Source of the DNA: a virus
Reading direction: 5' to 3' (one strand)
IMG/VR virus record: IMGVR_UViG_3300002098_000007
Coordinates: 1 to 55,215 of that record
DNA: 55,215 bases
Under the pieces are notes generated by a model. That model did no database searches and was not told the origin of the DNA. It saw only the letters and a program-made list of their open reading frames with translations. This document shows positions 407-55,215 of this stretch, in pieces (the first letter of the stretch is position 1; each line of letters starts with the position of its first letter). A program made the translations under genes and the position numbers.

Positions 407-1966
407 ATGCAACTCAGAAACTATCAAACCGACGCCGTAACGGCAATTTACGCCTCGCTTCGCCGAGGGCAGCACCCAGTAGCGCAGCTAGCCACGGGCA
501 CGGGCAAGTCGCTCATCATAGCGGACGTGCTCAGGCAGGAGGCCGAACGGGGACACCGCGCCTGGGTGCTCACTCACGCGCAGCAGCTCGTAAAGCAGAA
601 CGCTGAGACCTACTACCGACACACGCAAACGCAGGCAGGAATAGTCTGCGCAGGGCTCAGCCGTGAGGACTACGGCGCGCGGGTAATCTTCGGCACCATA
701 CAGAGCATGATTGGCCCCGCTATGCGGGGTGAAATAGTTACCCCTGAGCTCATCATAATTGACGAGGCTCACCGCGTGAGCCACAAAACGGGCGAGCAGG
801 GGATGTACGGGAGCATTTTCCACCGTCACGCGGGCTCCCGTCGCCTAGCGATGACCGCTACCCCTTGGCGCACTGACAACGGGCTCATTTACGGTGATGA
901 TCCGGACTATTTTTGGTTCAACTCTCTCGCCTACAAATACACCGTACCGCAGGCCGTGGCGGAGGGCTACCTGAGCCCCCTAGTCGGCGTTGAGACCGAC
1001 GTGCAGTTGGACTTGAAAGGGGTGAGCGAGGACGGCGAGGACTTCAATCAGACCCAAGCCGGTGAGCGCGTGACTAACGAATGGCTCACTGCCGTCGCGG
1101 GCTCGCTGCTCGAGCTGGCGCGCAACCGTAAGCACGTGGCGCTTTACGCACCGACCGTGGCAGCCGCTATGCGCGCCCAGGCCGCCGTTGAGCGCGTAAC
1201 CGGCTGGCGCACAAAGCTGCTCACCGGGGCGCACAAGCAGCGCGAGCGAGAGGAGATGTTTCGCGGCTGGGCCGCCGGTGAGTTCAAAGTTCTTTGCTCG
1301 GTGGACACGCTGACCACCGGGTTTGACTTCCCCGCGCTGGACTGTATTGCCTGCCTCCGGCCCACGCTGTCGTCTTCGCTCTGGGTTCAAATTCAGGGCC
1401 GCGGCACCCGCCTGAGCGAGGGCAAGCGCAACTGCCTGCTGCTCGACTACGCGGGCAACCTGCAGCGGCTGGGCGGGGTGGACATGCTGGAGACTTACGT
1501 CAAGCAGCGTGACCCGCATACGCCGGTCCAGGCCGTTGAGCCGCCCGAAAAGCGCGCTCGCGCACCGCGTCGGTTCCTACCCGGAGTGCGCACTTTGACG
1601 GCCATTGATCCCTTGACGGGCGCTCAGGCCACCGACGGCGCACTGCTCAAAGTCACTCCACACTCGAGCTCAGCCGTAGCGCTACGTATGCGTAACAAAG
1701 TTGGGGCGTTCATGCTCATGCGGACGTTTGAGTGCACCACGCCGGAGGGCGCCCGTATTACCGCCAGCACGTTCATATACCCCGAGCTGCCCGCGGCGAA
1801 AGAACAAACCGAGAAAAAGCTCCGTGAATGGGGTGTTGCGGCTACCTTACCCGTTAAGGCCAAAGTGCTCAGCTGGCAAAGCAAGACGTGGCCTCTGCCC
1901 TCAGCGCTCACGGTAAAAAAGAGCGGTAAGTATTGGAATATAACCACGATGGAGTTTAACAAATGA
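407..1966 (+). CDS. SF2 DEAD/DEAH-box DNA helicase
   Basis: 519 aa. Motifs seen: Walker A ATGTGKS, DEAH box IIIDEAHR, motif III MTATP, motif VI QIQGRGTR. Confidence 0.85.
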   Translation: MQLRNYQTDAVTAIYASLRRGQHPVAQLATGTGKSLIIADVLRQEAERGHRAWVLTHAQQLVKQNAETYYRHTQTQAGIVCAGLSREDYGARVIFGTIQSMIGPAMRGEIVTPELIIIDEAHRVSHKTGEQGMYGSIFHRHAGSRRLAMTATPWRTDNGLIYGDDPDYFWFNSLAYKYTVPQAVAEGYLSPLVGVETDVQLDLKGVSEDGEDFNQTQAGERVTNEWLTAVAGSLLELARNRKHVALYAPTVAAAMRAQAAVERVTGWRTKLLTGAHKQREREEMFRGWAAGEFKVLCSVDTLTTGFDFPALDCIACLRPTLSSSLWVQIQGRGTRLSEGKRNCLLLDYAGNLQRLGGVDMLETYVKQRDPHTPVQAVEPPEKRARAPRRFLPGVRTLTAIDPLTGAQATDGALLKVTPHSSSAVALRMRNKVGAFMLMRTFECTTPEGARITASTFIYPELPAAKEQTEKKLREWGVAATLPVKAKVLSWQSKTWPLPSALTVKKSGKYWNITTMEFNK

Positions 1967-2268
1967 AACCCGGCTACGTAAAACCGCCGCGCATTAAAGC
2001 GCCAAAAGAGATGCCCGTTGAGCATGCCACACGCATTCAGACGTACCTTGACAACGCTGTTCCTCCGTTGCACAGGCTCGTGACTGAGCGCGCCCTCACC
2101 GGACAGCTCGCTCGTGCCGCAGCGGTGAAGGTAAAATGTTTGTCCTGCTGCAATTTTGAGCGGGATGAGGTGAAGCACTGCGCAGTGGTGATTTGCCCGT
2201 TGCACCTAATCCGCCCGTATCAAGGCAAGCACACTATTGAGGACTCTGACGATGACGCCACCGCGTAA
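1963..2268 (+). CDS. Small Cys-rich (putative zinc-binding) protein
   Basis: 101 aa, with ATGA overlap onto the helicase stop. Cysteine cluster KCLSCCNFERDEVKHCAVVICPLH. Confidence 0.5.
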   Translation: MKPGYVKPPRIKAPKEMPVEHATRIQTYLDNAVPPLHRLVTERALTGQLARAAAVKVKCLSCCNFERDEVKHCAVVICPLHLIRPYQGKHTIEDSDDDATA

Positions 2269-4387
2269 GCCTAAACACATGTGGGACGTAAGCGTTGAGT
2301 CGGCGCCCTCGGGCTTAGATTATGCCCTCGCGTACGCTCGGCTCGGCTGGGCCGTGCTACCCGTGTGGTCAGTAGACGACCATGGGCAGTGCCGCTGCGG
2401 GCGGCCTAACGGCGAGAAAGGCCACAAGGCGGGCAAGCACCCACAAACGGCCCTGGCTCCCCGCGGACACCACGACGCCACCACGGATGAGCAGACCATT
2501 CGCGAGTGGTGGGCGGTGGATCCTGACGCGGGCATCGGAATCTCCCTCTCGGACTCCGGACTGCTGGCCCTAGACATTGACCCACAGAACGGCGGACGGG
2601 AGAGCCTAGCCGCGGTAGAGGCCGAACACGGTGTGTTGCACAGCGACTGCACCGCGGCGACGCAGGGCGGCGGGGAGCACCGGCTGTTCCGCGCCGAACC
2701 GGACATGAACTACCCGGCCAAGCTCGGCGCGGGGCTGGACTTGAAGCACCACGGTTATATCTGCGTCGCGCCTACGCTGGGGCCTTCGGGGGCGTACAGC
2801 TGGGTTGCGGGCGGCTCGCCCCTGAGCGCCAGCCGCCCCGCTCAGCCCTCGCCGTTACCCTCGCTCATAGCTAGCAAGGGCCGCTCGGCGGGGGGCTACG
2901 CCCTAACGGAGCGCGGCGGGGTGCCGGTGGCCACTGCGCAGACGTTTGACGATTTGCGCTCCGCGCTCCGGCACGTCGACGCGGATGACTATGATACCTG
3001 GGTCAACGTCGGGGTGGTGCTCAAGCCGTACGGCGAGAACGGCTATCGAGTGTGGACGGAGTGGGCCGCCCGAAGCGACAAATTTGACGCCGCCGCGCAG
3101 CGCCGCAAGTGGGAGCGGGACATTGACGCGCCGCACTCAATCACCTACCGCTCAATCTTCCGCATGGCACTGGACAACGGCTGGGCGGGGAATAACCACA
3201 CCCCGCAGCCTCAAACCGAGCCACCCGCGCCGGGCGAGCATCCGCTCTCGCTCAGCCGCTCGCTGCACTCGGGTGCCGGGGTGGTTGAGTTGTTTGAGTA
3301 CGTATTTGACGACCTGATGAGCACCGGAGTGAACGTAATTGCCGGCGCTCCGGGAGTGGGTAAAACCACTTTGATTGTCCCCCTGGCCTTGGCCGCTGCG
3401 CACCTCTGCTCGAGCGACTACGCCTTAAAGCCCGCCGTGCGCCGCAACGTCATAATCATTACCGAGTCGCCGGTGCAGGTTCAACGTGTGGTGTACTCGG
3501 TGGCGCGCTGGGGTTACACGGGCGAGGGCGCCGCGGAGTTTGAAGCTCGCGTGCGCGTCATTCCCGCTCAACGGCTCCCGCCGGAGTTGGTGGCCGCGGT
3601 GGCCGCGGAGTACGGGGGGTGGACCTGCGACAACGCCACCGCCGACGGCGGAACCTTTAGCGCCCGGCCCCTGGTCGTCTTTGACACTGCCAACGCCGTT
3701 TTTGACCTCGAGAGCGAGAACGACAACGCGGAGGTGGGCCGGGCTATGTCCGCAATTAAGCAGTCTTTTACTGACTTCCCGGTCATAATAGTCGCCCACA
3801 CCGCCAAGGCGCAAGGCACGGGCGAGGTCGACTACTTTACGCCGCGGGGTGCGGGGGCCTGGACTGGGGACGCGCAGGGGGTGTACACAGTGTTTAAAGA
3901 CGGCGAGGCCGAAGAGGCCCCCCGGGTAATGAAGGCCGCAAAGGTGCGCTTCCCCGTCACCCACCCCGAGCTCACGTTTGAACTAGTCAGCAACAAGGAG
4001 ACCCACAAGGACGTGCTGGGGTATCGCAAGGACATCTGGTTCGCGCACTCAGTAGCCCGGCCCCTAAAGCCCGGCGAACGGCGGAAGATTAAGGAAGACA
4101 TTAAGGAACAGAAAGAACAAGGCGACTGGGTTCAGCTCTGTGACGACATGCTGAACTTAATTCGCTCTCAACCGCAACGCTCCCGCTCGTACTACGAACA
4201 ATTAACAGTGATAAAGGGCGGGGCTCGGGGGTCGCAAGACCGCAAAGAGCGCGCGCTGACGAGCTTAATAAACGACGGCTCGGTAGTGCGCGTAGAGTTG
4301 GAAAAACCAGTCGGGCGGGCAAATCACTACCTGCGGGTGGACGAGGCCACCGTGGACTCGATCGAAAAAGGAAGGTACGCGGTATGA
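2252..4387 (+). CDS. Bifunctional primase-polymerase (Prim-Pol) fused to PriCT-like and P-loop RepA/DnaB-like helicase domains
   Basis: The ORF-track start at 2237 is TTG; ATG 2252 follows GAGGA. The N-terminus has GWAVLPV, GKHP, LALDIDP, GGEHRLF and HGYICVAPT. The middle has DDYDTWVNVG (PriCT-like). The C-terminus has Walker A GAPGVGKTT. Confidence 0.85.
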   Translation: MTPPRKPKHMWDVSVESAPSGLDYALAYARLGWAVLPVWSVDDHGQCRCGRPNGEKGHKAGKHPQTALAPRGHHDATTDEQTIREWWAVDPDAGIGISLSDSGLLALDIDPQNGGRESLAAVEAEHGVLHSDCTAATQGGGEHRLFRAEPDMNYPAKLGAGLDLKHHGYICVAPTLGPSGAYSWVAGGSPLSASRPAQPSPLPSLIASKGRSAGGYALTERGGVPVATAQTFDDLRSALRHVDADDYDTWVNVGVVLKPYGENGYRVWTEWAARSDKFDAAAQRRKWERDIDAPHSITYRSIFRMALDNGWAGNNHTPQPQTEPPAPGEHPLSLSRSLHSGAGVVELFEYVFDDLMSTGVNVIAGAPGVGKTTLIVPLALAAAHLCSSDYALKPAVRRNVIIITESPVQVQRVVYSVARWGYTGEGAAEFEARVRVIPAQRLPPELVAAVAAEYGGWTCDNATADGGTFSARPLVVFDTANAVFDLESENDNAEVGRAMSAIKQSFTDFPVIIVAHTAKAQGTGEVDYFTPRGAGAWTGDAQGVYTVFKDGEAEEAPRVMKAAKVRFPVTHPELTFELVSNKETHKDVLGYRKDIWFAHSVARPLKPGERRKIKEDIKEQKEQGDWVQLCDDMLNLIRSQPQRSRSYYEQLTVIKGGARGSQDRKERALTSLINDGSVVRVELEKPVGRANHYLRVDEATVDSIEKGRYAV

Positions 4388-15726: not shown

Positions 15727-16146
15727 ATGAAGTTCAACCCCGGCCAGCCGCACGGCACAATTGTGGGCCACGAGTGGGCCCGCTACGAGCAAAACGGCAT
15801 CCTCTACGACGGCGCGGGGTTGATCCCCGAGGCCGCCGCGGCAATAGACAAAGCCGCCGCGAAACCAGCTAAAAACGCGCCAGCGAGCAAAACAAAAACA
15901 GAAGCCAAGGCCGAGCCCAAGGCCCCCGCTCCGCAGGACGATTTGAAGCTAAAAAACGCCACCGAGTTCTTGACTAATTTGCTCTCCGGCGGGCCAATCG
16001 ACAAATCCGTTGTGTTCAAAGAGTCGGACAGCAACTGCCAAGACTGGGGCACCGTGAAGGCCGCCTTTGCGCAGATGAACGGGGTGAGCTTCAAGCGCGG
16101 GCAGTCTGAAATCTGGCGCCTGAACCCTGAGGAGGTTCAGCAATGA
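15727..16146 (+). CDS. Hypothetical protein
   Basis: 139 aa with a GGAGA RBS and a central Ala/Lys/Pro-rich linker. Confidence 0.55.
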   Translation: MKFNPGQPHGTIVGHEWARYEQNGILYDGAGLIPEAAAAIDKAAAKPAKNAPASKTKTEAKAEPKAPAPQDDLKLKNATEFLTNLLSGGPIDKSVVFKESDSNCQDWGTVKAAFAQMNGVSFKRGQSEIWRLNPEEVQQ

Positions 16147-17717
16147 CATGGGACGCAACTGAGCCGTACATGGCGGAGTCGAAAAAGATCGTCTGGGAGG
16201 TGGCCCCGTACCTACGCGGGCGGGGCTTAGACATTGGCGCGGGGGACTTCAAAGTCCTGCCTCACGTCATCAGCGTGGACAACATGCACCACTCGCAGTT
16301 CGGGTTCAGCGTCAAGCCGGACGTGATGTGCGAGGCGAGCAACTTAGATGTCTTCGGTAGCCAGTCGATGGATTTTGTTTACAGCAGCCATACGCTTGAG
16401 CACATTGCTGACTACGAGAATACGCTTAAAGAATGGTGGCGCGTCATCAAACAAAACGGCTACCTCATACTCTACCTGCCCGATGAGGACGAATACCCCA
16501 AGGTGGGCACCCCACACGCCAATCCTGATCACAAGTGGGACGTCAACTACGACAAAGTAGTTAACGCCATGAGTTGTGTCAAGGGCGGGTGGGATTTGAT
16601 TGACTTTCAGAAACGTAATGCTGACAACGAGTACAGTTTGTATTTTGTGTTTAAAAAGCAGAACTCTGACAAGTTCAAATTCAGTTACAAAAACCCTAAG
16701 CCTGAAAAAACCGCCTGCGTAGTGCGTTACGGCGCGTTCGGAGATATGATGATGGCTTCCTCAGTGTGGGCCGGGCTCAAAAAGCAGGGTTATCACGTCA
16801 CGGTGTTTTGCTCGCGCCCGGGTAGCGATGTTGTCACTAATGATCCCAACATAGACAACCTGGTGCTGTTTGACAAAGACCAAGTGCCTAATGCGAACCT
16901 GGTGGATTTCTGGGGTTATCAGGCCAACAAGTTTGACAAGTTCGTAAATTTGAGCGAGTCGGTTGAGGGTACGTTCCTGGCTATGCCCGGGCGCGCCCCG
17001 CACAAGTGGCCCGCCGCGTTACGCCACAAGCACATGAACGCCAACTACGTTCAGTTCTCACACGAGCTAGCGGGCGTGCCGCACGAGCCGCAGGTGAAGT
17101 TCTACCCCACTACGGAGGAGCTAGACTGGGCCCGTAAAACTCGCGCCAAAATGGGCGACGGGGTCATCATGTGGTCGCTGGCGGGGTCTTCTGTGCACAA
17201 AACCTGGGCCGGACTTGACAACATACTCGCCGCGGTGATGACCAATTTCCCCTCGGTGCATGTGGTATTGGTCGGTGGGCCGGAGTGCGTGATGCTGGAG
17301 GCTGGATGGGAGAACGAACCCCGCGTGCACAAGACCTCGGGCAAGTGGAGCATACGCCAGAGTCTGTCGTTCTTGTACGAGTGCGACCTGGTGATTGGCT
17401 CCGAGACCGGGGTGCTGAACGCGGCGGCCTGTCTCGACGTGCCTAAAATTACGTTGTTGTCACACTCAACACACGAGAACTTGACCCGCGACTGGAAGAA
17501 CGTGATACCGATCGCCTCGGAAAACACCACCTGCCCCGGGCGCGGCAACAACGACGCCCCCGCGTGTCATCAACTGCACTACGGCTGGGTGCACTGCAAA
17601 CAAGACCCCCACCAGGGCGTTGCGCAGTGCCAAGCCGACATCAGCGTCGACACCGTATGGCAGGCCACCTACGGCGTCATCAAAGCTGCGCTCGAGCGCA
17701 ACAGGAAGGTAGCGTAA
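16143..17717 (+). CDS. Fusion protein: class I SAM-dependent methyltransferase (N-terminal) + glycosyltransferase family 9 (heptosyltransferase-like, C-terminal)
   Basis: 524 aa. The N-terminus has GLDIGAGDF (motif I) and FVYSSHTLEHI...NGYLILYLP (Methyltransf_11-like). The C-terminus has VVRYGAFGDMMMAS...HVTVF, VLVGGPEC, SGKWSIRQSLSFLYECDLVIGSETGVLNAAA, the GT9 pattern. Its ATGA overlaps the upstream gene. Confidence 0.8.
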   Translation: MTWDATEPYMAESKKIVWEVAPYLRGRGLDIGAGDFKVLPHVISVDNMHHSQFGFSVKPDVMCEASNLDVFGSQSMDFVYSSHTLEHIADYENTLKEWWRVIKQNGYLILYLPDEDEYPKVGTPHANPDHKWDVNYDKVVNAMSCVKGGWDLIDFQKRNADNEYSLYFVFKKQNSDKFKFSYKNPKPEKTACVVRYGAFGDMMMASSVWAGLKKQGYHVTVFCSRPGSDVVTNDPNIDNLVLFDKDQVPNANLVDFWGYQANKFDKFVNLSESVEGTFLAMPGRAPHKWPAALRHKHMNANYVQFSHELAGVPHEPQVKFYPTTEELDWARKTRAKMGDGVIMWSLAGSSVHKTWAGLDNILAAVMTNFPSVHVVLVGGPECVMLEAGWENEPRVHKTSGKWSIRQSLSFLYECDLVIGSETGVLNAAACLDVPKITLLSHSTHENLTRDWKNVIPIASENTTCPGRGNNDAPACHQLHYGWVHCKQDPHQGVAQCQADISVDTVWQATYGVIKAALERNRKVA

Positions 17718-43511: not shown

Positions 43512-43762
43512 CGATCCTGATTCACGTAACTTGAAGTGGGTTCTTCGCCGTTGTCAAGAATCTTGTTCTGAACCTCGATATATTTCTCCAAGAAATGCAA
43601 CGCCTTCTGCAGGTCGGTAATACCGTTCTTCTTTTTCCAGCGAGTGACGTACTTGGTGATTTGAGCCTGGAAATAGTCAAGATCATTAGCCAGCACGTAG
43701 TCCCAGTGCTGAATGCTAGATTTATAGTGCGAGCCGCCCACTTGTTTGTCATTTGCTTTCAT
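43508..43762 (-). CDS. DUF3310-family protein
   Basis: VGGSHYKSSIQHWDY...ITKYVTRWKKKNGITDLQKALHFLEKY. ATG 43762 was chosen because the ORF-track start at 43780 is TTG. Confidence 0.6.
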   Translation of the reverse strand: MKANDKQVGGSHYKSSIQHWDYVLANDLDYFQAQITKYVTRWKKKNGITDLQKALHFLEKYIEVQNKILDNGEEPTSSYVNQDR

Positions 43763-44252
43763 TTGCGTACATTTCCCCAATCAGTTTAAACAGTTTGTAT
43801 TCTTTGTGCACGGGCATCATGTCCCATGCGTAGGACATATACCGATGATACACATCGGCCATTTTGTGGTTGCCGAGCTGAATTTCACGAATGCAGAACA
43901 GCGCGCCATGGGCAATGTCGGCTAGTTTCAGAGTGCGATATTCCCAGTCTTCCAGGTCAGGTAACGGGAAACCGCCGTCCTTCAGCAGGGACTCCTCAAC
44001 ACGGCTGACTTGATCACCGATGCCGTAGAGACGTTTTGCGGGAGAGGGAATGTCGCCGGTTTTTTGCTCAGCCAGGTCATGAACCAGCGCGGCGGTTAGT
44101 AATTCAGCGGTGGCGTCTGGAACCATGAGTAGGCATAACAACGCAACACCGTGAGAGTGATGCCCCACGGTGTCCGCGGCTAGTGTGCGTACGGTATGAT
44201 ATCGGCGGACATCCGACCCGTTGAGCATAAATTCCAAGTTTGAAAGGTTCAC
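43749..44252 (-). CDS. HD-domain phosphohydrolase, YfbR-like 5'-deoxynucleotidase
   Basis: 167 aa with a GTG start after GGAGA. Motifs: RYHT...TVGHHSHGVA, VHDLAEQKTGDIPSPAK, KLADI. Confidence 0.75.
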   Translation of the reverse strand: MNLSNLEFMLNGSDVRRYHTVRTLAADTVGHHSHGVALLCLLMVPDATAELLTAALVHDLAEQKTGDIPSPAKRLYGIGDQVSRVEESLLKDGGFPLPDLEDWEYRTLKLADIAHGALFCIREIQLGNHKMADVYHRYMSYAWDMMPVHKEYKLFKLIGEMYANESK

Positions 44253-44291: not shown

Positions 44292-44325
44292 AATTTTAGC
44301 CCTGTTTTTACGCAGGGCTAAAATT
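44292..44325. other. Perfect 13-bp inverted repeat (aattttagccctg / cagggctaaaatt) forming a stem-loop
   Basis: Stem 44292-44304 / 44313-44325 with an 8-nt loop. It lies in the 72-nt gap between the ThyA-like and HD genes, and the right arm abuts the ThyA-like stop codon. Confidence 0.8.
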
Positions 44326-45311
44326 TATTTTTCTGCCAGTGCGAGCTCCCGGCGATGAATCCAATCGTTAGCGGCGCGGCGAATGTCTTCATGAGTGATT
44401 TTGGCAGCCCAAGCGGAACCGTCACCGGCTTTAGTCTTACGGGTGTGGCTGATCATAGCGAGGGGGTAGGCCACGTTGGTGAAGAACGGGTGAGAGTAAC
44501 GGCGGATTTTAATCGGATCATCGCAGAACAACTCACACTCTTCAAGAAACGTGCGGTAGCTACCCGCACCGAGTATAGGCGCCGGGCGCACCAGGCACGC
44601 TGAATACAAGTCGTAGTCCTCGGCCACCGGGGGGTTCTCAATATACTTAGTCGCTGAGTACAACTCAGTATACAAGTGCAGGTTGGTACTGAAGGTGCGG
44701 TACACCCCCAAGTTGACACACACCGCGGAGGCTACAAACTCCTGCACAACGCTGAAGTGAACGATATTAGCCCCGGCGTAACCCCACCACGCATCGTTGC
44801 TACGGTTAATCACCGTCATGTTGAGCTTTTCGTTCTGAATTTCAAAGATGAGCTGCATGTTGCAGGCTTTGTCTTTAGTGTTTTTGGTCAAATCTTCCGG
44901 GGCCCACATCTGCACCACGGCCTGGCGGGTGTCGTGGTTCTTGCGCAGTTGTTGAATGACCTCAATCAACTGATCGTTTCCAAAGTGATGACGCCAGCGG
45001 TAACCATAGGCAGCGTTAAAAATCTTCCCGTTGTCCGAGTACGCCCCAATCTTGCTGTTGAAGCGCTTCAAAAACGCGACGTCGCGCCGCCCGGCGAGCA
45101 TCCAAATCGGCTCCAACATGTGGAAAATGGGGTTAGCGTCTCGCCCATGGTGAAACAAGATACGCTCCTGAGGATACTTTACAGTTGTCATTACAGGCTC
45201 GGGGATGCGCAGGGCAGGGCCATTGCGCGTTTCAACCGGAATGCCAGAGGTCTTCAAACGCCAGAACATATCTTGAAACATTGTATTTGCGTTACGTGTG
45301 GTGATTTCCAT
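44325..45311 (-). CDS. Divergent thymidylate synthase (ThyA)-family enzyme; candidate dUMP hydroxymethylase
   Basis: 328 aa. Motifs: YGYRWR, DQLIEVIQQLRKNHDTRQAVVQMW, KACNMQ (Cys nucleophile retained; PCH->ACN), RSNDAWWGYAGANIVHF, STNLHLY. A ~60-aa C-terminal extension is present. Confidence 0.7.
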   Translation of the reverse strand: MEITTRNANTMFQDMFWRLKTSGIPVETRNGPALRIPEPVMTTVKYPQERILFHHGRDANPIFHMLEPIWMLAGRRDVAFLKRFNSKIGAYSDNGKIFNAAYGYRWRHHFGNDQLIEVIQQLRKNHDTRQAVVQMWAPEDLTKNTKDKACNMQLIFEIQNEKLNMTVINRSNDAWWGYAGANIVHFSVVQEFVASAVCVNLGVYRTFSTNLHLYTELYSATKYIENPPVAEDYDLYSACLVRPAPILGAGSYRTFLEECELFCDDPIKIRRYSHPFFTNVAYPLAMISHTRKTKAGDGSAWAAKITHEDIRRAANDWIHRRELALAEK

Positions 45312-46171: not shown

Positions 46172-46749
46172 TGCTCGAACTCCCAGAAGACCTGCACCAG
46201 CGAAGGATGCGGGTCGGTGTAATTGATCACGCGTACATCAAACCCCCCGGCAGCTTTCAGGTTACGGTAGCAGTTCACCACGCTTTTGAACTTGTCTACT
46301 AGGTTCACAGGGTCAAAAGGTTTAGCGTTACCCGCAGCGGCCCGGCGGCCTTTTACGCGCTCGATGCACAACTCCTCAGGGGTGTTCAAAAACGCGTACA
46401 CATCGCACCCCGTGGGGTGAATAGACTGCGTAACCGCACCCGCGAGCCCCGAGGCTGAGACAAGGGCGCCCTCGAACAAAACATGCCCCCGGGCGTGCGC
46501 CTTGTGTATACGCTCGGCAATCTCGTCCTGAGTCTTGATTGAATCCGTCCCACCGCAGACGTTGTCGTATTTGCCGACTATAAAGATCGGCTGCTGTACG
46601 AGCGCCGCGCTCGCGTCACACTTGTAACCCATGATTTTACCCGCCGAGTTGCGCAGTTCGGTAGTGGGGTATCGAGTCATGAACTCGCGCACCGCGGTGG
46701 TCTTACCCGAACCGAACGTACCGCGAACTGAGAGTATGGCTCGCCTCAT
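46168..46749 (-). CDS. P-loop kinase; candidate 5-hmdU DNA kinase
   Basis: 193 aa. Walker A RGTFGSGKTT. Small size and ATGA coupling on both sides fit the call. Confidence 0.55.
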   Translation of the reverse strand: MRRAILSVRGTFGSGKTTAVREFMTRYPTTELRNSAGKIMGYKCDASAALVQQPIFIVGKYDNVCGGTDSIKTQDEIAERIHKAHARGHVLFEGALVSASGLAGAVTQSIHPTGCDVYAFLNTPEELCIERVKGRRAAAGNAKPFDPVNLVDKFKSVVNCYRNLKAAGGFDVRVINYTDPHPSLVQVFWEFEQ

Positions 46750-46925
46750 TTCTCACCCCCGAACGCCAAGTGCAGCAACAAATACCACATCGCTAAATGT
46801 GCGGCGTCAGATCTGCCCGTTTTATTGAACACTTCCGCGTAGTGTTTGTGCCAACCGTAGTTGTCGCTGCCGAGGGGTAAATTGCTCAGCCGCTTAAGCG
46901 CATGCTGCCGTTGCTTGGGTGTCAT
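46746..46925 (-). CDS. Small hypothetical protein (59 aa)
   Basis: Not in the ORF track. It reads MTPKQRQHALKRLSNLPLGSDNYGWHKHYAEVFNKTGRSDAAHLAMWYLLLHLAFGGEK. Its stop overlaps the kinase ATG (ATGA), and it starts 3 nt after the upstream stop. Confidence 0.45.
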   Translation of the reverse strand: MTPKQRQHALKRLSNLPLGSDNYGWHKHYAEVFNKTGRSDAAHLAMWYLLLHLAFGGEK

Positions 46926-46928
46926 TTG

Positions 46929-47954
46929 TTATTCCTTTACGTTATAGCGCTCGGGCCGGTACTCACCAAGCCTGATGAGCGAACCCGTCGCGGGGAAAAT
47001 TTTAGCCTTTTCCGCAACGCTGCGGTATTTATTTTCGCACTCAGCGCGGAGCCAGTTTGGCAGCCTATCGGAGCGTATGTCTTTGAATACTTCGGTATAT
47101 TCCTGCAGGTTGCGTTCATCTGCCCATAGGATCCGCTCCCAGGCCATATCAGCGTAAACCCCAGGGTAACGACGACCGAAGAAGTGATTCTTAAACGTGC
47201 ACAAGTTGCTCTCAAGTGTGAATAGAGAGGCGCCGGTCAGCTCGGGGTGTTGAGACTTGAACAGATCGAGCCAAATGTCCGCCCCCGCGGCTAAGAAGGC
47301 ACACATCGGTTTGAAGTTATTGTATTCACCGGTCTGCCCGTTAGGTAGCCGCTTGTCCCACACGAGATCATCTTTACCGAGCAGGAACAGCATTCCGTTA
47401 CGGTGCGACTTGCTGCCCGACTTGTCCTCAAACAACAGACTGTCACAGTCCGCGCCGAACCCCTTCAGGTAGACATACTCCAAGTAGCTGAATGAGGACA
47501 ACCGTCCGAATGAGTAGTAATTCCCGCGCACCAGCGTCCAGAGCTGTGAGTACGTTTTACCGCTCAGCATTCCCTCCTGAGAGCCATGACTATCAACCAG
47601 TTCAGCGTATCTCTTTATAGCTATTACGGTTTCTTTTTTCTGATACCTGCGGTCTGTATCGAATTGCAATGTGTCCCATTCGCTGTTGAACCACTCTTCA
47701 AACTTGCTGAGTGTTGAGCCCGCGGGCGGACACTCGGGCAGGCGTTCAAACAGCCTGAGAGAGGTGATAGGGTTCTGCGTCATGCCGTTGAGGAACGCGA
47801 ACCATAACTTCTGCTCAGCGCCCCACCCGTTACGCTGCGCCAGCTCGGGCATGTACAAGTATACCAGGCCGGGCATAATCCGGTGCTCTAGGTTCATAGC
47901 GTACAAATCCGTAAAGAACTGATTTCGGTTTTCCGGCAGTCGGTAGTCAATCAT
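46929..47954 (-). CDS. Candidate second DNA-hypermodification transferase (aGPT-Pplase clade-2 / amino-acid:DNA-transferase-like), 341 aa
   Basis: A large helical protein with no motif I can place in a housekeeping family. Its position inside the kinase/ThyA/PLP cluster supports the call, but the family assignment rests on context and memory only. Confidence 0.35.
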   Translation of the reverse strand: MIDYRLPENRNQFFTDLYAMNLEHRIMPGLVYLYMPELAQRNGWGAEQKLWFAFLNGMTQNPITSLRLFERLPECPPAGSTLSKFEEWFNSEWDTLQFDTDRRYQKKETVIAIKRYAELVDSHGSQEGMLSGKTYSQLWTLVRGNYYSFGRLSSFSYLEYVYLKGFGADCDSLLFEDKSGSKSHRNGMLFLLGKDDLVWDKRLPNGQTGEYNNFKPMCAFLAAGADIWLDLFKSQHPELTGASLFTLESNLCTFKNHFFGRRYPGVYADMAWERILWADERNLQEYTEVFKDIRSDRLPNWLRAECENKYRSVAEKAKIFPATGSLIRLGEYRPERYNVKE

Positions 47955-48084
47955 TCAAACTCTCCATTATTCCAAGCGCGGCAATGTACATAAAAAGCAA
48001 CCCGACTAAAGCCACAACCCCCACCCCAAGCAGTGCGCAAAGGACAAAGACGTTAGCAACGTCTTCAAATATAACAATATTCAT
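47947..48084 (-). CDS. Small membrane protein (45 aa)
   Basis: Not in the ORF track. It reads MNIVIFEDVANVFVLCALLGVGVVALVGLLFMYIAALGIMESLND and overlaps the downstream start by 8 nt. Confidence 0.4.
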   Translation of the reverse strand: MNIVIFEDVANVFVLCALLGVGVVALVGLLFMYIAALGIMESLND

Positions 48085-48086
48085 AC

Positions 48087-48299
48087 TCACCACCTTACGT
48101 CAGATTCAAGTCTGCGATCAACCGCGAACCCGAGCGCTAAGCCGAAAACCACGGTAAAGTAACGCGCCGACCATGCCCAATCTACCGGATTACGCGACCA
48201 TTCCACAAATGCACCTAAGGCGTAAGCAAACGCTAAGGTGCTGGCAAAGGGCATAAACCAGTACAATACGTGCCCCAGGTCGGTTGCGAGTTTTTTCAT
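48087..48299 (-). CDS. Membrane protein (70 aa, two predicted TM segments)
   Basis: ATG 48299 follows GGAGA and overlaps the upstream stop (ATGA). It reads MKKLATDLGHVLYWFMPFASTLAFAYALGAFV...YFTVVFGLALGFAV. Confidence 0.5.
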   Translation of the reverse strand: MKKLATDLGHVLYWFMPFASTLAFAYALGAFVEWSRNPVDWAWSARYFTVVFGLALGFAVDRRLESDVRW

Positions 48300-48484
48300 T
48301 TCGCTTCTCCAGTTATGTTGTGATAGACCTCCACCCAGCGTACGATTTGTTCTAGGCTCTGCCATGGGCCGTAGTTCTTCTGTATAACCTGCGCGGGCAT
48401 GGGCTCAATAATTTTGGCGTCAACAATCACGCCCTCGTGGTCTCGAATCAAAGTTACCGCCTGCGCGGTTGAGGCGTTGCTCAT
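48296..48484 (-). CDS. Hypothetical protein
   Basis: 62 aa, ATGA-coupled to the PLP-enzyme gene. Confidence 0.5.
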   Translation of the reverse strand: MSNASTAQAVTLIRDHEGVIVDAKIIEPMPAQVIQKNYGPWQSLEQIVRWVEVYHNITGEAK

Positions 48485-49440
48485 ACGGGCTCCTTGTGCG
48501 TGTAGAAAGGTTCAATCACTTTAGGGTTAGGGGTCGAGCCTACAATCCAGAACCCGGCTTTGTCATCAAAATTGAGCTCATTATTTTGTCTCAAATAACG
48601 CCAAATTTTTGCCTCGTACGTGGGATGAAAATGAATACCGTCATGGCTCTCCCCTTTGAACTTGTCGCTGTACGCGCTAAACTTCATGTCGTGCAGGCTG
48701 ACATGAGACCAGTGGAAAGGGAGATGATCAATATTAACCCCCATAATCGCCATTCTCTCACGCACCCACTTGCGCTTGTCGGGGCCGATTCCGTAGGTCA
48801 TCAGAAAGTCTACATTTTTAGGGTCTCGGCTCAGGCCGAGCAGGATGCTGCAAAGCGAGTTACACGAGCCCGCGGGCGCTATCAACGTGCGGAGCTCGAG
48901 CGGCAGGTTGCGCACCTGATTGGCACCGACCTCATGAAACTTGAGCACATCCTCCGCGGGGTAGCGGTCATGCGGAACGGTGATGCCGTACTCAACCACT
49001 AGCGAGGCGGGCTTAGTCAGGTCGGCCACGCGGCGTTGAATGATCGGGTTGTACGGCCCATTTACATACTCAAAGTGCGCGCCGAACCCCGCTGCAATAC
49101 GTGGGTTCTCGTGCGTGAGCAGGGTGTGTGGCCTGCTGTAGACCACCTGCCGAGCGATGAGCCCATAGTGTGCTCCTACAATCGCGGACATGCTCAGCTG
49201 CGGGCTCTGCACACTTGCTCCGGTGAGTATGTGAGTCTTCTGCGCTCTGTATCTATTAATGTACCAGATGAGCTGGCGCATCTTGCTGCCGTTGGGGCCG
49301 CCATAGCCTAGCGGCGCAAAGTAATCCTCACGTTTGAACCAGAGCCCCTGGTGATTCTCCCACGGGGTGAACTCGCCCAGGCTCTTCTCCCAATGAACCT
49401 GAGCGCGATCAAGCGTGTGAACAGGAAAAATGCTGCTCAT
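48481..49440 (-). CDS. Fold-type II PLP-dependent enzyme (ACC deaminase / D-cysteine desulfhydrase / Trp-synthase-beta-like)
   Basis: WFKREDYFAPLGYGGPNGSKMRQLIWYI matches the KRED...GGNKxRKL lysine motif region. ATG 49440 follows GGAG. The longer ORF-track start (49596) would overlap the upstream gene by 80 nt. Confidence 0.65.
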   Translation of the reverse strand: MSSIFPVHTLDRAQVHWEKSLGEFTPWENHQGLWFKREDYFAPLGYGGPNGSKMRQLIWYINRYRAQKTHILTGASVQSPQLSMSAIVGAHYGLIARQVVYSRPHTLLTHENPRIAAGFGAHFEYVNGPYNPIIQRRVADLTKPASLVVEYGITVPHDRYPAEDVLKFHEVGANQVRNLPLELRTLIAPAGSCNSLCSILLGLSRDPKNVDFLMTYGIGPDKRKWVRERMAIMGVNIDHLPFHWSHVSLHDMKFSAYSDKFKGESHDGIHFHPTYEAKIWRYLRQNNELNFDDKAGFWIVGSTPNPKVIEPFYTHKEPV

Positions 49441-49516: not shown

Positions 49517-49738
49517 TCATGTGTGCTTCTCCCAAAGTTTTTCAAAACACGGTTTGCAACAATCAAATGTGCCATATTCACCACCTGAGCCATCAATAGA
49601 CATAATTGTTGTCACGTTTTCACAAATTTCGCATGTGTATGTACCAATTTCAATACCTACACTTCGACCATAAACAGGTTTTTCAGAATCAAACACTGAT
49701 TTTCTTGTAGCCATCCACGTTTTCCATAATTCAGACAT
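49517..49738 (-). CDS. Zinc-ribbon-like small protein
   Basis: 73 aa with CEIC...CCKPC. Confidence 0.5.
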   Translation of the reverse strand: MSELWKTWMATRKSVFDSEKPVYGRSVGIEIGTYTCEICENVTTIMSIDGSGGEYGTFDCCKPCFEKLWEKHT

Positions 49739-50012: not shown

Positions 50013-50591
50013 TTACTCCTTAATGCCGTGGGCGGCTTTGTACCCTGCATAAATAGGCGTTCTGCCTTCTGGCACTTCTTCGCCATATCCGTTGAAGATG
50101 TAAATGTTGTTGATGGCAAGGTCAGCGTGACCAATCAATTCCAATCGCTCATCGGTCAGCGGCTTGCGCTGTGGTGGGGTGGTGTACAAACCAACGTCAC
50201 CTTCTTCGGGTTCAAGCCCAAGGTTTACACGCCAATCTTTTGCGCCCGCATACGCATTGCTTCGCATTACCAAAAGTTCTTTGGGGCTAATCCACGCCAC
50301 GGGTTCCTGATCTGGCTCTTTGTGCAACAACTCAAACAACTCTGCAACCTGCTCGTTTGTATAAACACCAACATGTGAATCAGGAAACTTAACCCATTGT
50401 CGGTCTGTTCCTGAAATATGAATAACGCAATATTCCTCTGTCTCAAGGCATATCAACCTGTCGCCACGGCGATACTTGCGCTGTGCCAACAAATCAGCCG
50501 CCGCTTTTAATGCTTCGCTATCCCTCGGCAATGTGACTGTTGGATACTTCGCCATTTCGCGCAATGCTTTAATAATTTCTTCTGTGTTCAT
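50013..50591 (-). CDS. Accessory protein, EPVAW/LYTTPPQRKPLT/AAHGIKE paralogue family
   Basis: 192 aa. It contains DQEPVAW, LYTTPPQRKPLT and the C-terminal AAHGIKE. Confidence 0.6.
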   Translation of the reverse strand: MNTEEIIKALREMAKYPTVTLPRDSEALKAAADLLAQRKYRRGDRLICLETEEYCVIHISGTDRQWVKFPDSHVGVYTNEQVAELFELLHKEPDQEPVAWISPKELLVMRSNAYAGAKDWRVNLGLEPEEGDVGLYTTPPQRKPLTDERLELIGHADLAINNIYIFNGYGEEVPEGRTPIYAGYKAAHGIKE

Positions 50592-50594
50592 GTC

Positions 50595-50825
50595 TTACTC
50601 CTTTATGCCTTGGGCGGCTTCTCGCAGCCCTTGAAATTTAAGTTGACTGAGAGCTTCGCAGCGTTCGCAACGATGGCGCAGCGCGATTGACCCCGCGTTG
50701 TACAGATCGTTGTCGTTGCAGCTTGTGCGGTCATGCTCAGGCCACACGGCATCAATCTTTTCGCGGTCGGTCAAGTTGGTTAGCTCAGTGCTCCACCAAG
50801 TAACTTCTTTTTTCTTTTTACCCAT
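50595..50825 (-). CDS. Accessory protein ending in AAQGIKE
   Basis: 76 aa. It shares the family C-terminus and junction sequence. Confidence 0.55.
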   Translation of the reverse strand: MGKKKKEVTWWSTELTNLTDREKIDAVWPEHDRTSCNDNDLYNAGSIALRHRCERCEALSQLKFQGLREAAQGIKE

Positions 50826-50828
50826 TTC

Positions 50829-50933
50829 TTACTCCTTTATGCCGTGTGCGGCTTCGCTGGCAAAAATTTGCCAACAACGTTTGCAGATAATCCAATCACG
50901 CATTGCGGGTCTGCCGCAGTGTTCGCATTTCAT
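50829..50933 (-). CDS. Mini zinc-ribbon protein (34 aa) ending in AAHGIKE
   Basis: Not in the ORF track. It reads MKCEHCGRPAMRDWIICKRCWQIFASEAAHGIKE. Its ATG overlaps the upstream stop (ATGA), and it has the same C-terminal junction cassette. Confidence 0.45.
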   Translation of the reverse strand: MKCEHCGRPAMRDWIICKRCWQIFASEAAHGIKE

Positions 50934-51310
50934 GCTTCCCCCTTGATGCCGTGGGCTGCTTTTTCAATTGCTCGGTATTCCGCAAAACTGATGCTCAATG
51001 CAGCTTCTGCCAGTGCGTCTGTCTTAAATAACGGGCGTATTGCGGCATACATTTCATCTCTCGTAAGCGGCTTGCGCTGTGGTGGGGTGGTGTAGAGAGG
51101 CACAGTGTGCAATGGCCCGCCGTTTGTCCGCACCTTCATGTCAAAGTTTTGCAAGTCGTTTGGGTTAGCCCACGCCACAGGCTCTTGCTCTGGCTGTTCT
51201 GGAACCATCTTGGTGACGGTCACATCATTAGGTAGGTCATACGGCTGCTCAAATTCAAACCATCTTGCTTGTTCGTTCTCGCACATCCAGATTTCTTTTG
51301 GTAGTTTCAT
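50930..51310 (-). CDS. Accessory protein, EPVAW/LYTTPPQRKPLT paralogue
   Basis: 126 aa with EQEPVAW, LYTTPPQRKPLT and the C-terminal AAHGIKGEA. Confidence 0.6.
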   Translation of the reverse strand: MKLPKEIWMCENEQARWFEFEQPYDLPNDVTVTKMVPEQPEQEPVAWANPNDLQNFDMKVRTNGGPLHTVPLYTTPPQRKPLTRDEMYAAIRPLFKTDALAEAALSISFAEYRAIEKAAHGIKGEA

Positions 51311-51313
51311 GTC

Positions 51314-52147
51314 TTACTCCTTAATGCCGTGGGCCGCTTCGATGGCTCGGGCAAAGCAAACCAATTCAAAGTCAGGCGCGGCAATAGTCGGCCCGTTTTC
51401 TTCGCCATCTGGGTAATTGGCTTCAAGAATCTGCTCGTTCGTTAGTTGGTTACGGATTGGATTGTTGATGTAATGACTGCATCCTTCTTGATGTCCGTTG
51501 TACGTCAAACACTCACGGCAATAACTTGCCACAGGCTCCTGTTCTGGCTCTTTGGGTTGTGCCTTCACATAACCCCATGCAGTAGCAAGACGGGCTTGGG
51601 TTGATTTGCAATTTAAGTTTTGCTCTGGTTGTGGTGGGGTGGTGTAGAGCGCCTGAACTTCTTTAGCAATTGCCACAGCCAAGTCGCTGTCCATTGTCTT
51701 GTTTGCGTTTTCCTCGTAGCACCAGCCACGGGCAACAGCGCCAAGTAAACTTTCCCACGCCACAGGCTTTTGTTCTGGCTTGCCTATGCCAACGCCAGTC
51801 TGCACAAGTTTTATGCGCTCTAAATCGCCTTGTGCGTTCTCCATCAACTGATAGTCTGATGTGGCGTTGTATTGCTGTGCCCCGCAGTTGCACTCACCCT
51901 TTGGATACGCTGGCTCGTTGTGAACAGCGCAGTCGCTTGCGTGCAAAGTCACTTTGCAATTTGGGCATTGACACGGCTCTGGCTGTGCCAAGGCTTTTTC
52001 GATGGCGGTAATGGCAGGGCCGCAAGCGTTTGAAGCCTCCAGCACATGATGAAGCGGTGGGTCAATGTCCCAAGCCATAAGTTCTTCTGCCAGCGCAGAG
52101 TCACACTTCTTCAACGCCTCAAGCGCCAGCTTCAATGCTTCTTTCAT
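51314..52147 (-). CDS. Accessory protein, multi-module EPVAW/LYTTPPQ paralogue with Cys clusters
   Basis: 277 aa with EQKPVAW, LYTTPPQPEQ, EQEPVAS, CQCPNC...C..H...CNC and the C-terminal AAHGIKE. Confidence 0.6.
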   Translation of the reverse strand: MKEALKLALEALKKCDSALAEELMAWDIDPPLHHVLEASNACGPAITAIEKALAQPEPCQCPNCKVTLHASDCAVHNEPAYPKGECNCGAQQYNATSDYQLMENAQGDLERIKLVQTGVGIGKPEQKPVAWESLLGAVARGWCYEENANKTMDSDLAVAIAKEVQALYTTPPQPEQNLNCKSTQARLATAWGYVKAQPKEPEQEPVASYCRECLTYNGHQEGCSHYINNPIRNQLTNEQILEANYPDGEENGPTIAAPDFELVCFARAIEAAHGIKE

Positions 52148-52389
52148 GCTTCACCTCTTGCTCGGATTGCTTTAGCTGCGGCAGTTCCATAAATCCTCAC
52201 GCCTGTTGGAATATGCGTATCGCAAACCGTCTTTTGAGCAAGAATTGCACACGCCTCACGCTCGGCCTCTGCTACCAGTTTGGCAAAGCGGCTCAAATCA
52301 TGTTTGTCACATTGAAAAAATAAACCATTTGTTGAGTTGTTGATTCCAGCTTGTCTAGCCATTTCAATGATTTCTGTTTGTGTTGTCAT
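52144..52389 (-). CDS. Accessory protein, MARQAG...EREACA...IRARGxA family, copy 1
   Basis: 81 aa. It reads EIIEMARQAG...FAKLVAEAEREACA...AIRARGEA. Confidence 0.6.
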   Translation of the reverse strand: MTTQTEIIEMARQAGINNSTNGLFFQCDKHDLSRFAKLVAEAEREACAILAQKTVCDTHIPTGVRIYGTAAAKAIRARGEA

Positions 52390-53015
52390 GGCTGAACTCC
52401 AAAGTTATATCCAATCAACTGACAGAACAAACGGTATTGCTCTAAATGCTCTTTGTTTTCTTTATGAGATTTTTCGATTTGTTTTGAAAACTCTGCAACC
52501 GTTCCAGTAAAGCAACCACAAACAACTCGAACACCGATTTTTTCATCCATAAAAGCCGTGGTGAATCTGCCTGACGATTTGGCAGGGCCGATCAGTAGCC
52601 AATGAGTTCTATCAGACACTTGAGCATTGCCAGACACCTGAGCATTGCCAGACACCTGAGCATTGCCAGACACCCGAGCATCGCCATACACCCGAGCATC
52701 GCCAGACACCCGAGCATCGCCAGACACCCGAGCATTGCCAGACACCCAAGCATTGCCAGACACCCAAGCATCGCCATACACCCAAGCATTGCCAGACACC
52801 CAAGCATTGTCATACACCCGAGCATTGCCAGACACCCAAGCATTGCCAGACACCCAAGCATCGCCAGACACTTGAGAAAGATTTTTCTCTGATTCAATAT
52901 ATCCACCCAAATCATTAGGCGTTACCAATGAACCAATTGCAACAAGTGCGCGAATTCGGTACAAAGTTTTTCCAAAAACCTGCTTTGTGTCTGTTTTTAC
53001 AAGTTCATATTTCAT
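52386..53015 (-). CDS. Hexapeptide-repeat (left-handed beta-helix-like) protein
   Basis: ATG 53015 follows AGAGGA (MKYELVKTD...). It carries about 15 consecutive 6-aa units, (G/Y)(N/D)A(W/R/Q)VS. The ORF-track start at 53069 lies in a duplicated gene-start remnant. Confidence 0.65.
   Translation of the reverse strand: MKYELVKTDTKQVFGKTLYRIRALVAIGSLVTPNDLGGYIESEKNLSQVSGDAWVSGNAWVSGNARVYDNAWVSGNAWVYGDAWVSGNAWVSGNARVSGDARVSGDARVYGDARVSGNAQVSGNAQVSGNAQVSDRTHWLLIGPAKSSGRFTTAFMDEKIGVRVVCGCFTGTVAEFSKQIEKSHKENKEHLEQYRLFCQLIGYNFGVQP
52613..52876. repeat. 18-bp tandem repeat array, 14 full units plus one partial (cagacacc[c/t][g/a]agcat[t/c]gc)
   Basis: Units start every 18 bp from 52613 to 52865 (counted individually). 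They encode the hexapeptide repeats on the minus strand. Confidence 0.9.
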
Positions 53016-53054
53016 AACAATGCGTCCTCTGTTTGTGCGCGTTGTTGTTGCGCG

Positions 53055-53079
53055 TATCCATGATTTCATCTTGTGTCAT
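53055..53079. repeat. 25-bp direct repeat, copy 1 (tatccatgatttcatcttgtgtcat)
   Basis: Identical to 53279-53303. It carries a second, orphan copy of the MTQDEIMD gene start. Confidence 0.9.
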
Positions 53080-53303
53080 GCTTTACCTCTTGCTCGAATC
53101 ATGGTGGCAAACCTTCTAGGCCATTGACTTTGACTTTCTTTGTCAACTTCATCACACAAGTTTGCACACGCCTCACGCTCTTTAGCTGCTACCAGTTGGG
53201 CAAAGGCTTCAATCATGGCGTAATTGGTTCCAATCGGGTCGCCAATGTGCGTCACCACAAATCCAGCCTGTCTAGCCATATCCATGATTTCATCTTGTGT
53301 CAT
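53076..53303 (-). CDS. Accessory protein, MARQAG...EREACA...IRARGxA family, copy 2
   Basis: 75 aa. It reads EIMDMARQAG...FAQLVAAKEREACA...MIRARGKA. Confidence 0.6.
   Translation of the reverse strand: MTQDEIMDMARQAGFVVTHIGDPIGTNYAMIEAFAQLVAAKEREACANLCDEVDKESQSQWPRRFATMIRARGKA
53279..53303. repeat. 25-bp direct repeat, copy 2
   Basis: Identical to 53055-53079. It covers the true start of gene 53076..53303. Confidence 0.9.
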
Positions 53304-55080: not shown

Positions 55081-55215
55081 TCAAGCCTCCACAAAAGCCA
55101 CTGCACCCGCACCCAGGGGCAACTCTCGCAGCACGCTGCCATACTGGCTAATTTGCAGGCCCAACGCACGGGCTTCGGCCAGTAGCTCTTGAGTGCTTTT
55201 ACGAGTGCGAGCAGC
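55081..55215 (-). CDS. 3' part of the gene split across the contig ends (same gene as 1..178)
   Basis: In frame to TGA at 55083-55081. Bases 55137-55215 duplicate 1-79. Confidence 0.5.
   Translation of the reverse strand, partial: AARTRKSTQELLAEARALGLQISQYGSVLRELPLGAGAVAFVEA
55137..55215. repeat. Terminal direct repeat, copy 2 (identical to 1-79)
   Basis: Exact 79-nt match to the window start, checked base by base. Confidence 0.95.

Follow-up and report, generated by a model that had tools for sequence, protein, structure and literature searches.

A probable DNA-acting PLP decarboxylase of fold type II in a ViI-type thymidine-hypermodification operon of an uncultured phage

Two phage enzymes dependent on pyridoxal phosphate (PLP), gp226 of Salmonella phage ViI and gp52 of Pseudomonas phage M6, have been characterised as decarboxylases of amino acids attached to thymidine in DNA. 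Both are yellow when purified and absorb at 410–425 nm, the signature of PLP (Lee et al. NAR 2021, PMC8989533). gp226 converts DNA-bound O-serinyl-thymidine (O-SerT, 345 u) to 5-aminoethoxymethyl-deoxyuridine (5-NeOmdU, 301 u), a change of −44 Da, and isotope labelling established that one carbon is lost during the reaction; without gp226 the carboxylated adduct of 345 u builds up on the ViI DNA, where the purified enzyme converts it (PMC8989533). In the M6 pathway, which leads to 5-NedU, gp52 can decarboxylate C-alpha-GlyT, likewise with a change of −44 Da, only once N-alpha-GlyT has been isomerised by the radical-SAM enzyme gp53, whereas the PLP decarboxylase of the ViI pathway needs no radical-SAM enzyme (PMC8989533), because serine that is linked through its oxygen keeps the alpha-amine free. 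The Phyre2 template for gp226 was 1j0a, which has the tryptophan-synthase-beta-like fold of an ACC-deaminase homologue, and Lys92 was taken as the Schiff base; Lys36 was proposed for this role in gp52 (PMC8989533). Here we describe a homologue of these enzymes, encoded at positions 48481–49440 of the IMG/VR virus record IMGVR_UViG_3300002098_000007, which was analysed over its whole length of 55,215 nucleotides (the window). Judged from homology and gene context, this gene most likely encodes a DNA-acting PLP decarboxylase that completes a thymidine-hypermodification pathway of the ViI type; its substrate would be a DNA-tethered amino acid linked through its side chain, probably serine by analogy with ViI.

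A tblastn search of 50,697 phage records found homologues of the window PLP protein in 348 of them, at 32–36% identity over 95–97% of the query. The matches are mostly in Ackermannviridae (ViI, CBA120-like, Limestone and others) and in a group of 157-kb Vibrio phages, and the ViI match is Vi01_182, annotated 'orf00226', which is gp226 (YP_004327553). In blastp the two proteins share 32.6% identity over 377 columns (E 3e-55), the alignment covering residues 3–312 of the 319 residues of the window protein (97% of its length). Relatives are unnamed in nearly all source records, a few JGI records describing them as ACC deaminase/D-cysteine desulfhydrase-like, and phage homologues are annotated as hypothetical protein, threonine dehydratase or threonine ammonia lyase.

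The open reading frame (ORF) lies on the minus strand and runs for 319 aa from an ATG start, beginning 'MSSIFPV'. A longer frame of 371 aa from a TTG at 49596 would run into an upstream 73-aa ORF; since the 120 closest homologues are 315–350 aa long and start at the same position as the 319-aa form, that form was taken as the gene. A first-pass annotation, made without database searches, had placed a 319-aa product at these coordinates and had read the Schiff-base lysine region of a fold-type-II enzyme from the string WFKREDYFAPLGYGGPNGSKMRQLIWYI. The coordinates and the ORF are correct, and the string corresponds to residues 34–61 of the product. The predicted pI of the protein is 9.0 (clade median 8.7), which is weakly compatible with a DNA substrate.

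phmmer with the window protein found no match among PDB sequences, so that the gp226-type decarboxylase family has no sequence-detectable PDB structure. The lone sequence being too divergent for Pfam and PDB searches, family profiles were required. Among 1.84 billion cluster representatives searched, 431 clusters reached E ≤ 1e-3, and a profile was made from an alignment of 79 diverse full-length relatives. Its matches included ACC deaminase (1f2d, 9.4e-17), Salmonella D-cysteine desulfhydrase (DCyD, 4d8t, 1e-15), the ACC-deaminase homologue 1j0a (4.8e-14) and tryptophan synthase beta (TrpB, about 1e-6); taken singly, 68 of the 79 relatives matched PF00291 (PALP). An AlphaFold2 model with 43 homologues as input reached a pLDDT of 84.7 and a pTM of 0.85. 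When this model was compared with the PDB by Foldseek, every one of the 50 top-ranked structures was a fold-type-II enzyme (probability 1.0, TM 0.6–0.66), the best being DCyD (E 5.8e-11, TM 0.62), with 1j0a at TM 0.65. Lys53, in an NGSK motif, is in register with the Schiff-base Lys51 of ACC deaminase and DCyD and is conserved in all 79 relatives; it also aligns with Lys92 of gp226 and Lys36 of gp52, positions confirmed by residue count. As assigned by profile and model, the protein is a fold-type-II enzyme of the ACC-deaminase/D-cysteine-desulfhydrase branch, with Lys53 as the predicted Schiff-base lysine.

The first-pass annotation had named the same fold and the same lysine, and both hold up: the profile values against ACC deaminase and DCyD are 1e-15 to 1e-16, no other fold type emerges, and the catalytic lysine keeps its place on proper alignment. 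From the fold, it had gone on to propose different chemistry on the DNA-linked adduct, since the usual reactions of fold-type-II enzymes are beta-elimination, beta-replacement or deamination. This step fails. gp226 and gp52, the published decarboxylases, were modelled on the same fold (PMC8989533). Since fold type II, in its ACC-deaminase-like form, is the very fold of the known hypermodification decarboxylases, the premise that it means no decarboxylation does not apply here.

The active site was mapped by combining residue equivalences from the profile alignments to ACC deaminase and DCyD with the account of the Salmonella DCyD structure in PMC3344862. Ser52 takes the place of Asn50, which precedes the Schiff-base lysine in the solved enzymes. 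Ser79, kept in 76 of the 79 relatives, is equivalent to Ser78, whose hydroxyl contacts the substrate carboxylate, and the next residue, Pro80 (proline in 73 relatives), replaces Asn79, whose backbone NH also holds that carboxylate; Gln81 corresponds to Gln80 or His80. The Gly-rich loop that binds the PLP phosphate in ACC deaminase and DCyD is represented by Gly191-Ser192-x-Asn-Ser, with Gly191 in 78 relatives. Tyr275, present in all relatives, corresponds to the ring-stacking Tyr287 or Tyr295, and in DCyD Tyr287 takes the proton from C-alpha (PMC3344862). Glu276, found in 78 of 79 relatives and replaced by Asp in M6, is equivalent to Glu296 of ACC deaminase; in ACC deaminases, the carboxylate of this glutamate hydrogen-bonds the pyridine nitrogen, which is held to strengthen the electron sink and to stabilise the quinonoid (PMC3344862). 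Val300, lastly, stands at the position of a Leu in ACC deaminase and of Thr315 in DCyD.

All of the mapped active-site residues are identical in ViI gp226, so there is no sign of a changed reaction between the two proteins. Decarboxylation depends on an electron sink and on stabilisation of the quinonoid. Glu276 at the pyridine N1 would make carbanionic decarboxylation feasible on a fold-type-II scaffold, and the change from Asn to Pro80 would loosen the carboxylate clamp, letting the C-alpha–COO bond stand perpendicular to the ring.

The neighbouring genes also point to DNA hypermodification (Table 1). The minus strand carries every gene from about 55 kb down to 38 kb, and the genes for the amino acid:DNA transferase (AADT), the 5-hydroxymethyldeoxyuridine (5-hmdU) DNA kinase (5-HMUDK), its helical partner, the thymidylate-synthase (TS)-like protein and the HD-domain protein are tightly packed on the same strand as the PLP gene, the helical-domain and kinase genes overlapping by 4 nt. 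The earlier suggestion that the PLP enzyme is the tailoring step of a thymidine-hypermodification cluster therefore agrees with the genes that adjoin it. The set equals the ViI set that is sufficient for the synthesis of 5-NeOmdU (PMC5889632, PMC8989533), and its order is like that of M6 minus the radical-SAM gene. From its context, the TS-like protein would be a dUMP hydroxymethylase supplying 5-hmdU; the HD-domain nucleotidase may clear the dTMP/dTTP pool, by analogy with the position of M6 gp59 and PMC13458397. The DNA polymerase gene lies directly downstream of the modification module, as in M6.

The cluster is mosaic. The kinase, the helical partner and the TS-like protein are closest to M6 gp54, gp55 and gp58 (30–39%), while ViI gp226 and gp247 are the matches of the PLP enzyme and the transferase, which gave no BLAST hit to M6 gp52 or to the M6 glycine transferase gp51, respectively. 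The nearest characterised AADT is the ViI serine transferase gp247, at 26% identity (E 4e-23), and the window AADT shares with the gp247 subfamily the motifs FDTDRRY, FGRLS and GSKSHRNG and a conserved Cys252. It is closer (35%) to uncharacterised proteins of Zemanar-type Mycobacterium phages. The AADT search gave 27 Mycobacterium records, and Mycobacterium was not among the ten genera listed for the PLP search, outside which at most 9 of the 348 records fall; the Zemanar-type mycobacteriophages appear to be without a PLP enzyme. In the Zemanar genome (L006, region 785–3465), gp3, the closest cultured transferase homologue, is encoded between gp2, labelled 'queuine tRNA-ribosyltransferase', and gp4, labelled 'terminase small subunit'. 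M6 gp54, truly a 5-hmdU DNA kinase, bears the label of gp4, but neither the M6 kinase nor that of the window was hit by Zemanar gp4 in BLAST. Mapping of the glycine-binding residues of PaMx11 gp46 (Asp24, Trp146, Lys150) onto the window transferase was dropped, as the alignment to the M6/PaMx11 type is unreliable at 16% identity.

Table 1. Genes and small open reading frames of the modification module in the window, with the DNA polymerase gene downstream of it.
Feature	Position	Strand	Remarks
PLP-dependent enzyme, fold type II, gp226 decarboxylase homologue	48481..49440	minus	Key residues Lys53, Ser79-Pro80-Gln81, Gly191-Ser192, Tyr275-Glu276
Small ORF, 62 aa	48296..48484	minus	ATG overlaps the TGA of the PLP gene (ATGA); in the window only among 83 sequences
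Small ORF, 70 aa (MKKLATDLG...), two hydrophobic transmembrane-like segments	48087..48299	minus	ATGA overlaps the stop of the preceding ORF
Small ORF, 45 aa, hydrophobic	47947..48084	minus	Stop overlaps the start of the transferase gene
Amino acid:DNA transferase (AADT, aGPT-Pplase2), 341 aa	46929..47954	minus	PF18724, 1e-14; ViI gp247 subfamily
Small ORF, 59 aa, between transferase and kinase	46746..46925	minus	Homologues in 4 of 83 sequences (window possibly included)
P-loop 5-hmdU DNA kinase (5-HMUDK), 193 aa	46168..46749	minus	PF18748, 32.7 bits (cutoff 27); 30% identity to M6 gp54
HMUDK helical-domain protein (formerly aGPT-Pplase1), 285 aa	45314..46171	minus	PF18723, 3e-43; 32% identity to M6 gp55
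Thymidylate-synthase-family protein	44325..45311	minus	PF00303, 2e-21; 39% identity to M6 gp58, E 8e-80
HD-domain YfbR-like 5'-deoxynucleotidase	43749..44252	minus	Pfam-level domain match
DNA polymerase, 612 aa	41673..43511	minus	38–40% identity to annotated phage DNA polymerases

Both ends of the window carry the same 79 nt (1–79 and 55137–55215), and the contig is therefore closed, a complete genome with a unique length of about 55,136 bp that is circularly permuted or terminally redundant. No CxxxCxxC motif was found in the plausible ORFs of this closed genome. tblastn with the M6 radical-SAM enzyme gp53 gave no match in the window, and no gp53 homologue was found in 82 related loci either. 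The absence of a radical-SAM partner, on which the first-pass annotation had remarked, thus extends to the whole genome, but it is not a new arrangement, since it equals the published ViI pathway.

A look-up of contigs encoding exactly the window protein returned no record. The 82 related loci were drawn from a close alignment and comprise 80 IMG/VR viral contigs and two metagenome contigs, with PLP proteins 65–81% identical to that of the window. The PLP gene is accompanied by the transferase in 80 of these loci, by the kinase in 77, and by the helical partner and the TS-like gene in 73 each. Many related contigs are 54–63 kb long, which indicates a populous clade of uncultured phages. Megablast of the 6-kb cluster against cultured phages gave no match, so none of these is closely related; identity of the DNA polymerase to that of any cultured phage does not exceed 40%. 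Natural fusions of the PLP domain occur as PLP–AADT, AADT–PLP, kinase–PLP, PLP–kinase and a kinase–PLP–AADT triple. Such fusions were previously noted by Lee et al., and they tie the PLP domain physically to DNA-acting enzymes. One metagenomic relative of 569 aa (P0218) has HNH, NUMOD3 and intein-splicing domains N-terminal of its PLP region, which suggests that an intein or a homing endonuclease has inserted into a hypermodification gene.

The pathway proposed for the window would run as follows. The TS-like enzyme would make 5-hmdUMP, and replication would incorporate 5-hmdU into DNA, where the P-loop kinase and its helical partner would phosphorylate it. The ViI-type AADT would then replace the phosphate by the side chain of a free amino acid, likeliest serine, giving O-SerT. 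Because a side-chain linkage leaves the alpha-amine free, no radical-SAM isomerase would be needed at this point; conversely, since the PLP enzyme requires a free alpha-amine and no isomerase is present, the amino acid would have to be attached by its side chain. To our knowledge, serine is the sole precedent for a side-chain-attached donor combined with a PLP decarboxylase and no isomerase. In the last stage, the tethered alpha-amine would displace Lys53 from PLP by transaldimination, and C-alpha would lose CO2 by way of a quinonoid, stabilised by Glu276 at the pyridine nitrogen, and be reprotonated. The internal aldimine with Lys53 would be restored, and with serine as the donor the base would now bear an aminoethoxymethyl group (5-NeOmdU).

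Several points weigh against this assignment. Identity to the characterised proteins is low, at about 33% for the PLP enzyme against gp226 and 26% for the transferase against gp247, and the single PLP sequence had no Pfam hits, PALP falling short of significance. Decarboxylation is atypical of fold type II, and the decarboxylase assignment consequently depends on two characterised homologues. The donor specificity, moreover, cannot be read from the sequence, because the closest transferase homologues (35%) are in the Zemanar-type phages, which apparently have no PLP enzyme.

This last point bears on the alternative that survives best, in which the same decarboxylation takes place on another donor, such as threonine, homoserine, cysteine, ornithine, lysine or diaminobutyrate, and gives an undescribed thymidine hypermodification. 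We consider it possible, if somewhat doubtful. The distance of the window AADT from gp247 and its closer match to the uncharacterised mycobacteriophage proteins leave room for it, as does the breadth of the Pplase2/AADT family, which uses glycine, serine, putrescine and 1,3-diaminopropane and has many uncharacterised network clusters (PMC13458397); Lee et al. likewise anticipated uncharacterised products from metagenomic clusters. However, the sole characterised AADT that is paired with a PLP decarboxylase and no radical-SAM enzyme takes serine, the motifs of the gp247 subfamily are present in the window AADT, and the PLP enzyme retains every mapped active-site residue of gp226. Were another donor used, the products might be, for example, aminopropoxy-, aminoethylthio- or in-situ-made diamine-methyl-deoxyuridine.

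That the enzyme instead performs beta-elimination, beta-replacement or deamination on the DNA-linked adduct is very improbable. These are indeed the reactions of most fold-type-II enzymes, including the nearest structures, ACC deaminase and D-cysteine desulfhydrase, and Tyr275 preserves the proton-abstracting tyrosine of DCyD (Tyr287, PMC3344862). However, both characterised members of the same family and fold are decarboxylases (PMC8989533), and the mapped active site matches that of gp226 throughout, with proline at the carboxylate-loop position where ACC deaminase and DCyD have the asparagine whose backbone NH holds the carboxylate. Beta-elimination from O-SerT, furthermore, would only regenerate 5-hmdU in a futile cycle. 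Equally hard to sustain is a role away from DNA, in which the enzyme would decarboxylate, for example, a free amino acid and supply an amine or alcohol donor to the transferase: the transferases of PhiW-14 and SH-Ab 15599 do take free diamines directly (PMC13458397) and the nearest solved relatives use free small molecules, but the ViI adduct accumulates on DNA without gp226 and is converted there by the purified enzyme (PMC8989533), the PLP domain is found in nature covalently fused to the DNA kinase and the DNA transferase, and the basic pI, as a weak point, favours a DNA substrate.

As judged by homology, then, the gene is an ordinary further member of a known DNA-hypermodification pathway and not a case of new chemistry. 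If the decarboxylase assignment is right, the ViI-type route (kinase, transferase, PLP decarboxylase, no radical-SAM enzyme) extends beyond the large Ackermannviridae to abundant uncultured environmental phages of about 55–59 kb, with its genes in one compact operon. This would be useful for the annotation of these mostly unnamed proteins, and it predicts that the DNAs of these phages resist restriction enzymes and that they may be hard to clone or to sequence. The residue map (Lys53, Ser79-Pro80-Gln81, Tyr275-Glu276 and Val300) is a modest by-product that offers ideas on why this subfamily decarboxylates. Even if the product is 5-NeOmdU, the family gives a hypothesis for how a fold-type-II enzyme may be retuned, by a Glu at N1 and a Pro replacing an Asn.

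Insertions of varying size lie between the PLP and AADT genes (window 47947–48484; relatives L007–L086). Of 80 related loci, about 30 have a gap of 0–30 nt, about 25 one of some 170–230 nt, about 10 one of about 770 nt and about 10 one of 1–4 kb. The window has three overlap-coupled mini-ORFs here, two of them hydrophobic, and the ATGA overlap of the 62-aa ORF with the PLP gene suggests translational coupling. The small ORFs were searched for in 83 sequences, the 82 related loci and the window, and homologues of the 70-aa ORF occur in 4 of them, the window possibly being counted among the four. Extra tailoring enzymes were sought in the small ORFs near the PLP gene, in the upstream early genes and in the 1–4-kb inserts of two relatives (L082 and L025), and none was found; there was no acetyltransferase, FAD enzyme, amidoligase or radical-SAM enzyme among them. 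Apart from hypothetical proteins, these regions gave only one protein with DUF7338 and another with a weak likeness to DHH, and the two inserts contain only such genes.

Elsewhere in the genome, a protein of 524 aa is encoded on the plus strand at 16143–17717, inside the structural module, and joins a SAM-methyltransferase domain (Methyltransf_11) to a heptosyltransferase-like glycosyltransferase of family 9. It was considered as an additional tailoring enzyme and set aside. It has no match in cultured phages, and its 27 viral-contig homologues lie on contigs different from those of the 80 PLP loci. Virion proteins or a host surface molecule might be what it glycosylates or methylates, and a role in DNA tailoring is also conceivable.

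Four successive genes on the minus strand at 50013–52147 encode proteins of 192, 76, 126 and 277 aa, each ending in '...AAHGIKE' or 'GIKGEA'. The motifs 'LYTTPPQRKPLT' and 'EQEPVAW' recur in three of the four, which together make up a family of tandem paralogues without a Pfam match. Two small paralogues of 81 and 75 aa, starting with 'EIIxMARQAG...' and ending in 'IRARGEA/KA', follow at 52144–52389 and 53076–53303 (minus strand). Between them is a YdcK beta-solenoid repeat protein (52386–53069), the hexapeptide-type DNA repeat of which yields long spurious ORFs in other frames. A primase-helicase with Prim-Pol, PriCT-2 and AAA_25 domains is encoded on the plus strand at 2237–4387, opposite to the PLP operon; in L003 (2921–5038) and L004, it is on the same strand as the PLP gene. 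These two relatives also have a dCTP-deaminase (DCD) gene upstream of the PLP gene, with no counterpart in the window. The differences in the strand of the primase-helicase and in the presence of DCD indicate that the early region has been rearranged within the clade.

A search of the literature of 2022–2026 on this PLP family added nothing to the papers cited here. The closest described system is that of ViI. The window protein resembles gp226 in its homology over the full length, its fold and the common SPQ, HPxYEGK and FWIVGS motifs, and the partner set is the same, with 5-HMUDK, its helical partner, a clade-2 AADT and a dUMP-hydroxymethylase-like gene, and no radical-SAM enzyme. At 319 aa, however, it is shorter than gp226 (424 aa), having neither the N-terminal extension of about 30 residues nor the internal insertion of about 50 residues. 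In ViI, with its 157-kb genome, the PLP and transferase genes are about 10 kb apart, whereas in the 55-kb phage they belong to a single compact operon, whose kinase, helical partner and TS are M6/YuA-like; related contigs have hits to Pfam YuA_Gp49.

M6 gp52 belongs to the same family and fold, but it is only about 21% identical to the window protein, with no BLAST hit at E 0.01, and is tied to it solely by the family alignment. The gene order around the PLP gene of M6 resembles that of the window, and M6 alone has the radical-SAM enzyme gp53, which unmasks the primary amine. gp52 also lacks the SPQ loop and has an Asp at the position of Glu276.

With ACC deaminase and DCyD (1f2d, 1j0a, 4d8t), the fold is shared (TM 0.6–0.66) at just 15–17% identity. 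All have the Schiff-base lysine, the substrate-loop serine, the Gly-rich loop for the phosphate and the tyrosine that stacks on the ring, and the glutamate at the position that hydrogen-bonds the pyridine nitrogen is shared with ACC deaminase. The window protein differs from both in having a serine for the asparagine that precedes the lysine and a proline for the asparagine of the carboxylate loop, and, by homology, it would decarboxylate an amino acid tethered to DNA instead of catalysing a ring opening or an elimination.

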